Below are positions 20,777-25,429 of a stretch of DNA of 40,047 bases, in pieces. Position numbers and translations under genes: made by a program. The notes beneath the pieces are model-generated. The model ran no database searches, had not been told where the DNA came from, and worked only from the letters and a program-made list of their open reading frames with translations. Location of the stretch: NCBI GenBank assembly GCA_035655915.1, contig DASRTO010000580.1, positions 1 through 40,047 of the forward strand. The letters are read 5' to 3'. The stretch's first letter is position 1. Each line of letters opens with the position of its first letter. The stretch comes from Anaeromyxobacteraceae bacterium. GTDB lineage: Bacteria; Myxococcota; Myxococcia; Myxococcales; Anaeromyxobacteraceae.

Positions 20777-22102
20777 ATGACATGGCTACGACGCTTCCAC
20801 GACGGGATGGTCCTCGGCGCGCGCGCCTACGCTCGGTGGGACATCTCGACCTCCAGGCGGATCCTCGGCGATCGCCGCAGGCTCCTGGCGCTGGTCCTGC
20901 TCCTGCTCCCCATCGCGCTCGGCGGCTGGGCCTTCGCCGGCGAGATCGGGGAGGCGCTCCCGGCGCTCCTCGGCGGCAAGCAGGCCTACGGGCCGGCCCA
21001 CTACACCACCGCCATCTTCCTGGCCTCGACCGCAGTCGGCGTGGTGGCCGGCCTCATCACCGGGTGCATCGGCGCCGGCGGCGGCTTCATCATCGCCCCG
21101 GCCCTGATGAGCGCGGGGGTGAAGGGCATCCTGGCGGTGGGCACCGACCTCTTCCACATCTTCGCCAAGGCCATCATGGGGAGCGTGCTCCACCGCAAGC
21201 TGGGGAACATCTCGGTCTCCCTGGCCAGCATCTTCCTGGTGGGCTCGATCGGCGGCGCCACCCTGGGCGGCTACGTCAACCGCACCCTGTACGAGGCGAA
21301 CCCCATCCTCTCCGACGCCTTCATCACCTCGATCTACGTCTTCATCCTCGGCTTCCTCGGCTTCTACGGGATGGCCGACTACCTCCGGTCCCGCAAGGCC
21401 AGGGCCCTCCCGTCGCGCCCCTCCAAGAGCGGGAGGAAGGCCTCCGCGGTCGAGGACACGACCGGGCTGGCCAGGAAGCTCCAGGCGATCCACCTGCCCC
21501 CCATGCTCTCCTTCGACCAGGGCGTGGTCCCGGGCGGGCGGAGGATCTCGGCCGTCTTCCTGGTCATGAGCGGCGGGCTGGTGGGCCTGGCCGCGGCCAT
21601 CATGGGCGTGGGCGGCGGCTTCCTCACCTTCCCCATCTTCGTCTACGTGCTGGGCGTCTCGTCGGCCACCACGGTGGGGACCGACATCTTCCAGATCGTC
21701 TTCACGGCCGGGTACGCCGGCATCAGCCAGTACGCGGTCTACGGCTTCATCTTCTACACCCTGGCCATGGGCATGCTCCTCGGATCCCTCATCGGCATCC
21801 AGGTCGGGACCCTGGTGACCAAGGTGGTCCCGGGCCCGACCATCCGGGGCTTCTACGCGCTGGCGGTCATGTCCGCCTTCGTCAACCGAGTCTTCGCCCT
21901 GCCCGGGAAGCTGGTGGGGCTCGAGGTGCTCCCCATCTCGGCGGACGCGGCCAGGGTCGTCGAGAGCGCCGGCATGTACACCTTCTTCATCGTGCTCGGC
22001 AGCTTCGCCCTCTGGGTGTTCTGGACCTTCTTCACCAACGTCCGGACCCTGAAGGGCGAGCCCGAGGAGGTCTACGCGGCCACGGAGGAGATCCAGGCAT
22101 GA
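20777..22102 (+). CDS. TauE/SafE-family anion permease, long form (cassette 2)
   Basis: 441 aa with two TauE half-signatures, GLITGCIGAGGGFIIAPALM and GLAAAIMGVGGGFLTFPIFV. It starts 3 nt after the kinase stop, and its own stop overlaps the next start as ATGA. Confidence 0.85.
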   Translation: MTWLRRFHDGMVLGARAYARWDISTSRRILGDRRRLLALVLLLLPIALGGWAFAGEIGEALPALLGGKQAYGPAHYTTAIFLASTAVGVVAGLITGCIGAGGGFIIAPALMSAGVKGILAVGTDLFHIFAKAIMGSVLHRKLGNISVSLASIFLVGSIGGATLGGYVNRTLYEANPILSDAFITSIYVFILGFLGFYGMADYLRSRKARALPSRPSKSGRKASAVEDTTGLARKLQAIHLPPMLSFDQGVVPGGRRISAVFLVMSGGLVGLAAAIMGVGGGFLTFPIFVYVLGVSSATTVGTDIFQIVFTAGYAGISQYAVYGFIFYTLAMGMLLGSLIGIQVGTLVTKVVPGPTIRGFYALAVMSAFVNRVFALPGKLVGLEVLPISADAARVVESAGMYTFFIVLGSFALWVFWTFFTNVRTLKGEPEEVYAATEEIQA

Positions 22103-22876: not shown

Positions 22877-25429
22877 ATGGCCTGGCTCCTGAAAGCCCTG
22901 TCGCAGCTGTTCCGGCCGGCGCCGAAGCCGGGCGCCGCGGAGCTCCAGGCCGCCTTCCGCTCCCGGTACCGGAGCTTCCGCTCCCTCATCACCGCCAACA
23001 ACGCCGCGCTCGAGACCATGGCCGAGATGGAGGCCGCCCTCCACTCGGGCAAGCCCTTCGGCATGGCCTTCGTCCGGGGACAGTGCACCGCCCTGGGCGT
23101 GAACGTGTACAAGATGATCCAGGGACTCCGGGAGCTCTCGGACGGCCGCTACCGGGACCTCCCGGAGCGCTTCGGGCTCGTCACCGGACGCATCGAGGCC
23201 ATCCTCTCCCGGCAGCCCGAGGCGGTCGGCTCGAGCTACGTGCTCCCCCTGGAGGAGATCGACCGCCGCGCCGTGGACCAGGTCGGTGCCAAGCTGGCCA
23301 ACCTGGGGGAGGTCCGGAACCGCCTCGGCCTGCGGGTCCCGGAGGGATTCGCCATCACCGCGGCCGCCTCGCGGCACTTCCTGGAGTCCACCCATCTCCA
23401 GGACGAGATCAACCGCCGGCTGAAGACGCTGGACCTGGACGATCTCGAGGCCCTCTTCCGGACCAGCACCGCCATCCAGAAGCTCATCGGGTCCGCTCCG
23501 CTCCCGGAGGACCTCGAGCGGGCGATCCAGGACCAGTATCGCCGCCTGGCCGGGAAGGCCGGCGGGGCGCCGCTGCTCTCGGTTCGCTCCAGCGCGCTCG
23601 GGGAGGACGGCCGGCAGGCCTCCTTCGCCGGGCAGTACCGGACCCGGCTGAACGTGAGCCCGGAGCTCCTCGCCCATGCCTACAGGGGAATCGTGGCCGG
23701 CAAGTATCGCAGCCAGGCCATCGCCTACCGCCAGGAGCGCGGCTACCGCCACCAGGACGTGCTCATGTGCGTGGGCTGCCTGGTGATGGTGGACGCCGTC
23801 GCCAGCGGGGTGGCCTTCTCCCGGCCGCCGGACCAGCCCCGCAGCCCCTGGATCCTGATCTTCGCGGCGCCCGGCCTCGGGACCCAGGTGGTGGAGGGGC
23901 GCTCCCCCAGCGACGTGTTCCGGATCTCGCGCGACCCGCCTCACCCAATCGCCTCCCGCCAGGTCGCGAGCGCTGGCGGCGACGCCTGCCTTCCCGACGA
24001 GCAGGCCCGCGAGCTGGCCGCCGCTGCCGCGCGGATCGAGGATCACTTCGGGGCGCCCCAGGACATCGAGTGGGCCCTCGACCAGGCCGGCCGGATCGTC
24101 ATCCTCCAGGCCAGGCCAATCGGGAGGGCGGCGCCGCAGCCGGAGAGCGCCCCGTCGCCCGACCCGGACCAGGCCGAGGGACCGCCGCCGCTGCTCGCGG
24201 GCGGCGTCACCGCTAGTCGAGGGGCAGCCTGCGGCCCGGTGTTCACGGTGCGCTCCGGGGTGGACGCGGTCCATTTCCCTAGGGGAGCGGTACTGGTGGT
24301 GGAAACCCCCTACCCGGATTGGACCGTGCTCCTCAACCGGGCCGCCGCGGTGCTCAGCGCCTCGGGCCAGATCGCCACGCACCTGGCCACGGTGGCCCGG
24401 GAGTTCGCCCTGCCCGCCATCTTCGACCTGCCCGGCCTCCTGGAGCAGGTGACCGACGGCCAGATCGTGACCGTGGATGCCACCTCGCGCCGGGTCTACC
24501 CGGGCCGCGTCGAGGCCCTGCTGCGCTCGCCCCCAGCCCGGCCTAACCTCATGGAGGGGAGCCCCATCCACCGCCTCCTCAAGGAGACGCTCGGCCTGGT
24601 CACGCCCCTCCACCTGACCGCCCCGGGCTCGCCGTTCTTCAGGGCCTCGTCGTGCCGGACCCTGCACGACATCACCCGCTTCTGCCACGAGAAGGCCGTG
24701 GCCGAGATGTTCGACTTCGGGAGGCGGCACGGGTTCAGCGACCGCGCGGCCAAGCGGTTGGTCGTCGCCGAGGCGCCCTCGCAGTGGTGGGTCATCGACC
24801 TGGACGACGGGTTCCGGGAGGGCCTCGACACCTCGAGCCCCTTCGTCCGGGTCGAGGACGTCGTCTCGGCGCCCATGCGCGCCATCTGGAGGGGCATGAC
24901 CGCCGTCCCCTGGCACGGACCGCCGCCGGTGAGCCTTCGCGGCTTCGGCGCCATCGTGGTCCAGTCGACCATGAACCCCCGCCTCGATCCGGCGGTGCGC
25001 TCGAGCCTGGCCGGCCGGAACTACTTCCTGGTCTCGCGGAGCTTCTGCAATCTGAGCGTCCGGCTGGGCTACCACTTCGCCCTGGCGGAGGCGAACCTGT
25101 CCGATCTACTCGCCGAGTCCTACGTCAACTTCCAGTTCAAGGGGGGCGCCGCCGACGAGCCCCGGCGCCTGGGACGAGTGCAGCTCCTCGCCGAGACCCT
25201 GCGGGCCATGGACTTCCGGGTCGAGATGACCGGCGACGCCCTCACCGCCCGCATCGAGAAGAAGCCGGTGCCCTACCTCCGGGAGCGGCTGGTGGTGCTG
25301 GGATACCTGCTCATCCACGCGCGGCAGATCGACATGGTCATGGACGACGAGGCCTTCGTGGAGCGGTACCTCGAGAAGATCCATGCCGACATCCGGATGA
25401 TCCGCGAGCGGCTCGCCGAGGAGGTGTGA
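22877..25429 (+). CDS. PEP-synthase-like protein: helical N-region, ATP-grasp (PPDK_N-like) domain, phosphohistidine swivel domain, uncharacterised C-terminal domain; paralog of 3399..6803
   Basis: The start is taken at ATG 22877 (MAWLLK..). Domain signatures are ..[11 protein letters not shown].., [25 protein letters not shown] and the His domain [23 protein letters not shown]. The C-terminal region (..[33 protein letters not shown]..) is collinear with the C-terminus of the 3399..6803 product. Confidence 0.85.
   Translation: [850 protein letters not shown]

Follow-up and report, generated by a model that had tools for sequence, protein, structure and literature searches.

A putative permease-coupled phosphotransfer module with a PEP-synthase-like enzyme in an Anaeromyxobacteraceae bacterium

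The stretch of DNA analysed here (the window, that is, 40,047 nucleotides at positions 1 to 40,047 of the forward strand of contig DASRTO010000580.1, assembly GCA_035655915.1, from an Anaeromyxobacteraceae bacterium; G+C content 71%) carries two paralogous cassettes in which a TauE-family permease is combined with an accessory membrane part and an enzyme resembling phosphoenolpyruvate (PEP) synthase. The second of these, cassette 2, is our subject and consists of three genes that encode the permease TauE2, the accessory membrane protein Acc2 and the enzyme PPS2 (Table 1). A preliminary description made from the sequence had placed the three genes at 20777–25429 with products of 441, 229 and 850 amino acids; positions and lengths hold, as does the ATGA overlap between the permease stop and the start of the 229-residue protein (GCATGATTC). 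Although the PPS2 open reading frame (ORF) first opens at a TTG codon (22802), we take the ATG at 22877 as the start because homologues elsewhere align from residue 1–4 of the 850-residue version. The flanks are likewise as described, with a mini-ORF, receivers and a histidine kinase upstream and a receiver downstream. All genes from 17716 to 25810 follow one another on the plus strand with gaps of at most 88 nt, the stop codon of the dCache kinase lies 2 nt before the TauE2 start, and a scan of the plus strand between 17.7 and 25.8 kb found no internal terminator-like site, which is consistent with, but no proof of, a single transcript.

PPS2 begins with a helical region that matches the segment directly past the membrane helix in the fused paralogue of cassette 1 (PPS1), and continues with an ATP-grasp domain, a swivelling phospho-histidine domain and a family-specific C-terminal domain. 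In an alignment of 73 sequences (71 from other genomes and both window paralogues), at least 97% retain the ATP-grasp residues K139, RSSA 237–240, E243/D244, FAG 250–252, Q395-D-x-E-W399 and Q411/R413 and the swivel residues G497, H502, R508 and E509. Given that the nucleotide-binding motifs and the predicted catalytic His502 (24380–24382), together with R508/E509, are conserved, the phosphotransfer machinery looks intact. The PEP/pyruvate TIM barrel (PF02896) was found neither in PPS2 nor in 30 family members in a Pfam scan at E ≤ 10, and PEP synthases and rifampicin phosphotransferases in the PDB match PPS2 only up to about residue 551. Among NCBIfam models PPS2 falls below every cut-off: the best match, the PEP synthase model NF005057, scores 293 bits against a cut-off of 598 (E 4e-87) and covers only the first two domains, and TIGR01418 scores 279.7 bits against 739.75. 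These results bear directly on the reading that public names convey, in which an ordinary gluconeogenic PEP synthase happens to lie beside transporter genes. The Joint Genome Institute (JGI) names many homologues ‘pyruvate,water dikinase’ (another public label is ‘TIGR02186 family protein’), the best NCBIfam model is indeed one of PEP synthase, and a study of Dissulfuribacter thermophilus reads a homologue, DITHS69_1988, as a gluconeogenic PEP synthase (PMC13490349). At the level of domains this reading is refuted, and we give it practically no weight: PPS2 is not a PEP synthase but a phospho-histidine enzyme of the PEP-synthase/dikinase type that has no PEP/pyruvate domain. The preliminary label ‘kinase-like’ is better replaced by this description, whereas the paralogy that came with it stands.

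A second reading starts from the similarity of the ATP-grasp domain to rifamycin phosphotransferase models (E 3e-56; PDB 5hv1 and 5fbs), and would have the enzyme inactivate an antibiotic or other xenobiotic that the TauE protein then exports. The score against the corresponding model (NF041857) is 191 bits versus a cut-off of 999 and comes from the ATP-grasp domain only; the order of domains differs, in that the His domain of PPS2 follows directly after the ATP-grasp domain with no rifampicin-binding domain between them. Moreover, the genes form a core chromosomal operon, with a periplasmic-sensor kinase, in anaerobic sulfur-cycling lineages, and a search of a plasmid collection returned no homologues. 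In Desulfovibrio, loss of genes from what appears to be a related cluster (see below) led to more nitrate resistance, not less (PMC4001038). We regard drug inactivation and efflux as highly improbable.

The position of the barrel is taken in PPS2 by a C-terminal domain of about 290 residues. Its signature, that is, CxxLHDxxRFxHE(K), a PPP turn, KGGAAD, several invariant Arg and H.RQ.DM, is more than 97% conserved in the 73 aligned sequences and is retained in PPS1 and in a more distant third subtype. With Cys, His, Asp, Arg, His and Glu residues that do not vary, many invariant Arg and a Gly-rich KGGAAD loop that precedes a helix, the domain looks, from its sequence, like an anion-binding active site. 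A profile built from 30 members retrieved 1464 clusters (50% identity) at E ≤ 1e-3, 744 of them at E ≤ 1e-30, and nearly all represent proteins of 840–900 residues that carry the domain at their extreme C terminus. No Pfam family was found in this region of PPS2 at E ≤ 10 and no consistent one in the 30 members, and newer precomputed Pfam annotation of full-length homologues also has no entry there. The AlphaFold model is a mixed alpha/beta fold and not a barrel (predicted local distance difference test score, pLDDT, 78; predicted template modelling score, pTM, 0.71). A PDB fold search with it gave nothing significant (best E 0.016, template modelling (TM) score at most 0.24), and the domain profile matched no PDB sequence. 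Two apparently stand-alone C-terminal-domain proteins on very long contigs (P0101 and P0049, at loci L085 and L086) were rejected as frameshift-split genes in long-read assemblies; at L086 the TauE gene is split as well. A 1078-residue homologue with a C-terminal extension was set aside as a read-through artefact. Among the remaining relatives, a 942-residue protein (P0442) has lost both the swivel His and the CxxxHD motif and looks, by these losses, like a pseudo-enzyme paralogue, and at one Desulfocapsaceae locus the receiver is followed by a second, tandem enzyme gene (L036, 11328–13859).

Cassette 1 offers an internal comparison. PPS2 is collinear with residues 291–1115 of PPS1 (34% identity over 860 alignment columns, E 2e-116), an alignment in which every peptide pair quoted in the preliminary description falls. 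The homology claimed there for the C-terminal domains is borne out by 31% identity over 255 residues (E 1e-36) and the common signature, and the N-terminal helical regions share 28% identity over 98 residues (E 4e-8). The permeases are related as well (28% identity, E 2e-15), and the TauE1/PPS1 junction is an ATGA overlap like that of TauE2/Acc2. PPS1 differs by its membrane part: a signal-like N terminus is followed by an Alph_Pro_TM region (residues 41–257), a transmembrane helix (236–261), the PEP-synthase-like enzyme and the same C-terminal domain. This N-terminal part matches PF09608 with 144.5 bits against 24.5 (E 5.4e-42) and scores 67.7 bits against the cut-off of 255 of the stricter model TIGR02186, so we regard it as a divergent member. 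More than 100 clusters of full-length homologues show the fused architecture, and the nearest relative of PPS1 is a protein from an Anaeromyxobacteraceae metagenome-assembled genome (91% identity).

The two membrane components of cassette 2 are conserved in different ways. TauE2, which scores 117.5 bits against the PF01925 gathering threshold of 32.6 and has multiple hydrophobic segments, is an enlarged TauE variant with extra N- and C-terminal helices; across 64 homologues, which come from several phyla, its membrane core hardly varies. Acc2 had been called bitopic, which does not hold, as it has two hydrophobic helices (residues 7–31 and 194–220) with a loop domain of about 165 residues between them. 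Its family counts more than 1000 homologues, nearly all of 228–230 residues and annotated as ‘hypothetical’; no Pfam or NCBIfam model covers it, and 30 members gave no Pfam match at E ≤ 10. An AlphaFold2 model (pLDDT 86) retrieved nothing significant in a PDB fold search (best E 0.26). The second helix and the end of the protein (FEG[WL]G[LI]K[LI]xH-COOH) are nearly invariant in the family: Acc2 itself ends in FEGWGLKLEH (residues 221–229, window 22759–22785), and about 63 of 68 homologues, drawn from several phyla, have His as their last residue. Both accessory parts share a topology of N-terminal signal or helix, soluble domain and C-terminal helix, with the cassette 1 enzyme running on from the last helix. 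That the accessory protein is a different one from that of cassette 1 was correctly described: BLASTP between Acc2 and the Alph_Pro_TM part found nothing, hhalign against the fused-family profile gave a probability of 0.3%, for which reason distant Alph_Pro_TM homology was dropped, and no convincing counterpart of the FEGWGLKLEH tail was seen in the post-helix segment of the fused family. A TauE protein with a small membrane partner recurs with at least four unrelated partner types, that is, Acc2, Alph_Pro_TM, a 158-residue protein and PF28216.

Gene neighbourhoods in other genomes show how tightly these components belong together. A scan for the C-terminal domain in one genome per species gave at least 597 loci, and the counts for cassette-2-type neighbourhoods refer to the best 80 of these, onto which the window proteins were mapped by tblastn. 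In all 65 loci that have at least 2.3 kb before the enzyme gene, homologues of TauE2 and Acc2 directly precede this gene on its own strand, with gaps of −24 to 183 nt between TauE and Acc and mostly below 350 nt between Acc and the enzyme. The fused cassette-1 type has TauE immediately upstream in three of three independent contexts; one locus of the third subtype (L081) encodes TauE, a small PF28216 (‘DVU0150’) protein, a kinase, two receivers and an 873-residue enzyme whose C-terminal domain matches that of PPS2 (E 2.5e-39); and two further loci (2/2) have the order receiver, TauE, accessory, enzyme. The preliminary description had argued for a dedicated system instead of a chance neighbourhood and had named enrichment of C-terminal-domain homologues beside TauE genes as the check; the enrichment is there, in 65 of 65 loci and in six further contexts that belong to two more divergent subfamilies, and together with the fusion to a membrane protein in cassette 1 it also speaks against a PEP synthase gene placed by chance. 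On this basis cassette 2 is very probably one copy of a dedicated permease-coupled phosphotransfer module.

Two-component genes accompany the module often, with a receiver directly downstream of the enzyme in 55 of 76 loci, one immediately before TauE in 48 of 64 and a dCache kinase homologue upstream in 44 of 60; a sigma-54 activator is nearby in 40–44 of 80. The embedding in a two-component operon that had been described is therefore common but not universal, given that none of the four fused cassette-1 contexts (the window and three others) has an adjacent receiver. Because of these contexts we place the two-component genes outside the core: the core of the module is permease, accessory and enzyme, with two-component genes as a frequent add-on. 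The same counts bear on the idea that PPS2 is a non-canonical histidine kinase, in which a PEP-synthase-type module would replace HisKA/HATPase in a phosphorelay and His502 would pass its phosphate to the Asp of the neighbouring CheY-like receiver. RR3 starts 4 nt downstream of PPS2 and, like RR2, retains the residues of the receiver phospho-acceptor pocket (as read from the sequence and Pfam; RR1 has other residues in place of the acidic pair and the conserved Lys), and the top fold-search match of the C-terminal domain is the DesK kinase core. That match is not significant (E 0.016, probability 0.35, TM score 0.15–0.20), the operon already encodes a conventional dCache HisKA/HATPase kinase, and, as the fused subfamily lacks an adjacent receiver in four of four contexts, a receiver is not an obligatory acceptor. 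We therefore consider this phosphorelay quite improbable.

Sulfur oxidisers and disproportionators predominate among the taxa that carry the loci (Rhodocyclaceae, Thiobacillus, Sulfuritalea, Hydrogenophilus, Gallionellaceae, many Desulfobulbales, Thermodesulfovibrionales, Thermoleophilia, Syntrophobacterales, Desulfarculaceae and Nitrospiraceae). In two unrelated genomes, one of them from Methylomirabilota, the fused cassette is adjoined by AprB (with PF12139), AprA and Qmo-like flavoproteins; at L081 a stand-alone TauE and Alph_Pro_TM pair lies between AprBA and the fused cassette. A YeiH-family gene occurs near one of the three fused-cassette contexts, as it does in the window, where the sulfur-related neighbours are YeiH-like, SulP, TauE3 and YeeE with TusA. 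A YeeE and TusA pair is of a type known for thiosulfate uptake. We link the module to sulfur on account of the TauE family name, these window neighbours, AprBA beside two fused cassettes, the host taxa and two published studies.

The first of these studies concerns the poorly annotated ‘nitrate cluster’ of Desulfovibrio vulgaris and D. alaskensis (DVU0251–DVU0245 and Dde_0597–0605; Korte et al. 2014, PMC4001038), which encodes a TauE-like permease, a small conserved hypothetical protein, a PtxB-like protein, a histidine kinase, a single-domain receiver, a 744-residue enzyme with PPDK_N and mobile domains, for which no PEP/pyruvate domain is listed, and a dual-specificity-type phosphatase (PMC4001038). 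The gene families of the window match these published domain lists for TauE, the small hypothetical protein, the kinase, the receiver and the PPDK_N and mobile-domain enzyme. Strains with a transposon in the permease, hypothetical, receiver or enzyme gene grew unimpaired in 100 mM nitrate, whereas a phosphatase mutant did not; the cluster mutants of D. alaskensis G20 were mildly impaired in growth on thiosulfate, and the authors proposed a leaky thiosulfate transporter (PMC4001038). The second study, of the proteome of Dissulfuribacter thermophilus (2026), found three proteins to be more abundant in thiosulfate disproportionation: DITHS69_1988, named ‘PEP synthase’ (log2 fold change 3.4), DITHS69_1989, a ‘transmembrane protein co-occurring with TauE’, and DITHS69_1990, a TauE protein (PMC13490349). 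Our literature search turned up no biochemical work on the enzyme, on Alph_Pro_TM/TIGR02186 or on the accessory family.

Taking these observations together, we propose that the enzyme would dock to TauE and the accessory protein on the cytoplasmic side, with the conserved N-terminal helical region (that is, the post-membrane linker of the fusion) as the likely anchor. ATP bound in the ATP-grasp domain would give its beta-phosphate to His502 of the swivelling domain, which could then carry the phosphate to an acceptor held by the C-terminal domain in place of the PEP/pyruvate barrel. This acceptor may be a small oxyanion imported by the permease, with a sulfur species (for example, thiosulfate or sulfite) as the likeliest candidate, so that phosphorylation would result in vectorial trapping or activation, if import is indeed the direction of transport. 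The dCache kinase and the CheY-like receivers would presumably turn the enzyme on, and the adjacent sigma-54 activator may govern expression. Nitrate, as a toxic look-alike, could enter by the same route, and its futile phosphorylation would give the nitrate phenotype that the Desulfovibrio mutants share. We favour a small oxyanion as acceptor because the C-terminal domain has the look of an anion pocket, because relatives act on small molecules and because the costly dikinase chemistry suits poor nucleophiles. The relatives in question are characterised PEP synthase homologues with swapped acceptor domains, for instance rifampicin phosphotransferase, phenylphosphate synthase and PigC/RedH. 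Our view that the transported small molecule, an oxyanion, serves as the acceptor is nevertheless a tentative proposal, held at somewhat less than even odds; for the whole scheme of a permease-docked enzyme that passes phosphate from ATP through His to an oxyanion, we put the probability at roughly 40%. A more specific version seems unlikely to us, namely ATP-driven group translocation of an inorganic or small organic oxyanion, in which permease and accessory would hand the anion to the tethered dikinase to yield a novel high-energy phospho-anhydride, for example phosphorylated thiosulfate, sulfite or sulfate. If true, it would constitute an ATP-fed, non-sugar counterpart of the phosphotransferase system (PTS) and open a new way into dissimilatory sulfur metabolism.

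Several points weigh against the oxyanion scheme. We know of no phosphorylated sulfur oxyanion that occurs as a metabolite, and the substrate range of the TauE family is broad. PDB and Pfam searches brought up no structural or sequence relative of the C-terminal domain that would point to a ligand, and the helix bearing the CxxxHD motif is modelled at low confidence (pLDDT about 50–59). Within 10 kb of cassette-2-type loci, SulP was found in 9 of 80 and YeiH in 4 of 80, and AprA, YeeE and TusA in none. The placement of DVU0246/Dde_0604 and DITHS69_1988 in the C-terminal-domain family was made from published domain lists and lengths only, and the adjacency of the three Dissulfuribacter genes is no more than probable, because two locus tags are given for the one protein UniProt A0A1B9F8F1 (DITHS69_1988 in Table 2 of that study and DITHS69_1161 in its text; PMC13490349). 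Finally, the Desulfovibrio phenotype concerns nitrate, and a role in gating would fit it equally well.

Such a gating role is the substance of a further alternative, a regulatory switch in which the enzyme phosphorylates the permease or the accessory protein (for example, near the C-terminal His tail) and a phosphatase may reverse this, yielding a gated transporter or transceptor and no metabolic trap. Cassette 1 is laid out like a receptor kinase, with an outside domain, one transmembrane helix, a conserved helical linker and the enzyme; the operon has several output-less CheY-like receivers; the accessory tail FEGxGxKxxH-COOH is near-universal; and PTS enzyme I, of the same superfamily, phosphorylates a protein. 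The Desulfovibrio cluster includes the phosphatase; its mutant in D. vulgaris shows a nitrate phenotype opposite to that of the other cluster mutants, although the G20 counterpart behaved differently (PMC4001038). Set against this, the sole long cytoplasmic loop of TauE2, in its centre, is variable and offers no conserved phosphorylatable residue, the C-terminal domain with its many invariant charged residues resembles a catalytic pocket, and an 850-residue dikinase that costs two ATP equivalents is an odd choice where a kinase and receivers already exist. We consider the switch rather doubtful, and retain the phosphorylation of an imported oxyanion as our working model.

The remainder of the window adds context. 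The third permease, TauE3 (127 bits against the PF01925 gathering threshold of 32.6), and its 158-residue partner converge on the end of cassette 2, and 9 of 80 related loci carry this pair downstream as well; the YeeE/TusA pair is divergent from them. Further along (29818–35082) are a multihaem cytochrome c-like protein with CXXCH motifs and two radical-SAM proteins, of which one also has a B12-binding domain. The start of TauE1 is probably near residue 45 of its ORF, judging from 305-residue homologues that align from about residue 45. Upstream of the mini-ORF, a GG-N10-GC site (TGGCACGGAGCGCGC, 17632–17646 on the plus strand) is a lead only, as a sigma-54 promoter scan of the window gave 24 matches against 31 expected, that is, not above chance. 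A peptide motif, [ML]xAxxFAE[AE]GExxxA[RK]xx[LM], occurs six times in the window in plausible reading frames (in the mini-ORF, the tails of RR1 and RR2, the C-terminal tail of SulP, a small ORF and the N terminus of a 165-residue ORF at 9768–10265). It is kept in mini-ORFs and RR2 tails of the related loci L012–L027, resembles only TPR_4, weakly (E 0.0046), and may be a shared docking peptide.

Table 1. Features of cassette 2, its operon and the rest of the window (positions refer to the window except in the last row)
Feature	Position	Strand	Remarks
TauE2, TauE/TSUP-family permease	20777–22102	+	441 aa; PF01925 E 1e-33
Acc2, accessory membrane protein	22099–22788	+	229 aa; ATGA overlap with TauE2 stop
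PPS2, PEP-synthase-like phosphotransfer enzyme	22877–25429	+	850 aa; PPDK_N E 1.5e-81, mobile domain E 1.4e-14
PPS2 N-terminal helical region	22877–23236	+	about residues 1–120; motif F..L..ANN..L..M.E.E
PPS2 ATP-grasp domain (PPDK_N, PF01326)	23276–24145	+	residues 134–423; E 1.5e-81
PPS2 swivelling phospho-histidine domain (PF00391)	24275–24487	+	residues 467–537; E 1.4e-14
PPS2 C-terminal domain, family-specific	24530–25429	+	about residues 552–850; about 290 aa
C-terminal signature 1	24653–24694		C593-x3-H-D-x2-R-F-x-H-E-K606
C-terminal signature 2	25139–25156		K-G-G-A-A-D760
mini-ORF	17716–17973	+	85 aa, FAEAGE-type motif; homologous mini-ORFs upstream of RR1 in related loci
RR1, degenerate receiver	17987–18517	+	PF00072 E 5e-9, 36.7 bits; FAEAGE-motif tail
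RR2, receiver	18524–18997	+	PF00072 E 7e-25; C-terminal FAEAGE-motif tail
Histidine kinase, periplasmic dCache_1 sensor	19044–20774	+	HATPase_c, dCache_1, HisKA; two transmembrane segments
RR3, single-domain CheY-like receiver	25433–25810	+	PF00072 E 1.9e-28; 4 nt past PPS2 stop
sigma-54 activator, PAS-containing	15973–17544	-	divergent from operon
TauE1, cassette 1 permease	2341–3402	+	PF01925 E 1e-46, 159.9 bits
PPS1, cassette 1 fusion protein	3399–6803	+	1134 aa; PF09608 E 5e-42, PPDK_N E 8e-74, PF00391 E 4e-12
YeiH-like gene	113–1705		
SulP gene	7231–9198		
TauE3, third TauE permease	25862–26842	-	127 bits against PF01925
TauE3 partner, three-helix membrane protein	26855–27331	-	158 aa; no family
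YeeE/YedE-family sulfur transporter	27933–29405	+	PF04143 E 1.6e-34
TusA sulfurtransferase	about 29430–29674	+	E 2.7e-16
FAEAGE-type motif sites	17716–17973, 18419–18463, 18947–18991	+	
FAEAGE-type motif sites	7336–7380, 9336–9365, 10191–10220	-	
APS (adenosine 5′-phosphosulfate) reductase regions beside fused cassettes	L081 1493–5633; L083 1493–3829		positions in these loci

The module is widespread, conserved and mis-annotated, and its hosts (Desulfobulbales, Thermodesulfovibrionia, Syntrophobacterales, betaproteobacterial sulfur oxidisers, Methylomirabilota and Anaeromyxobacteraceae) belong to lineages that drive the sulfur cycle. The label ‘pyruvate, water dikinase’ steers metabolic reconstructions towards gluconeogenesis, the Dissulfuribacter study being one example. 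Should the nitrate cluster be the same module, the nitrate tolerance of sulfate reducers, and with it the basis of nitrate treatment against oil-field souring, would be under its control. Knowing the acceptor would establish a new enzyme activity and reveal how ATP is coupled to a TSUP permease.

Compared with known systems, PPS2 shares with PEP synthase (PpsA) and PPDK the order of PF01326 and PF00391, the catalytic His and the ATP-grasp motifs, and differs from them by the unrelated alpha/beta domain in place of the PF02896 barrel, by its extra helical N terminus of about 120 residues and by a gene that always follows those of a permease and a membrane protein, to which it is fused in one subfamily. 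Rifampicin phosphotransferase, PigC/RedH, phenylphosphate synthase and glucan water dikinase likewise feed a family-specific acceptor domain from an ATP-grasp domain and a phospho-His swivel (ATP-grasp similarity of PPS2 to such relatives, E 1e-44 to 1e-56); the acceptor domain of PPS2 is unrelated to any of theirs by PDB fold and sequence searches, the domain order of rifampicin phosphotransferase is different, and to our knowledge none of the four is coupled to a permease. The PTS also ties a phospho-His enzyme of the PEP-utilizer family to a permease and provides a precedent for transport-coupled substrate phosphorylation, whereas the present module has no HPr, EIIA/B or EIIC, its permease is of the TSUP/TauE type and, as an ATP-grasp domain is present and the PEP domain absent, its donor would be ATP and not PEP. 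Cassette 1 holds exactly the pair known as TauE/SafE with Alph_Pro_TM (TIGR02186), a stand-alone example of which lies next to AprBA at L081, except that the window Alph_Pro_TM protein is extended by an entire enzyme and that cassette 2 has the unrelated 229-residue protein instead. The Desulfovibrio nitrate cluster, compared by gene content, has the same gene families, with one phenotype shared by mutants in four of them, and differs by its PtxB-like periplasmic protein, its phosphatase and its shorter proteins of 320, 195 and 744 residues (PMC4001038). PPS2 is thus an enzyme of a known kind, the PEP-synthase-type dikinases with exchangeable acceptor domains; what is new in its module is the acceptor domain, the accessory protein and an unprecedentedly strict coupling to a permease.

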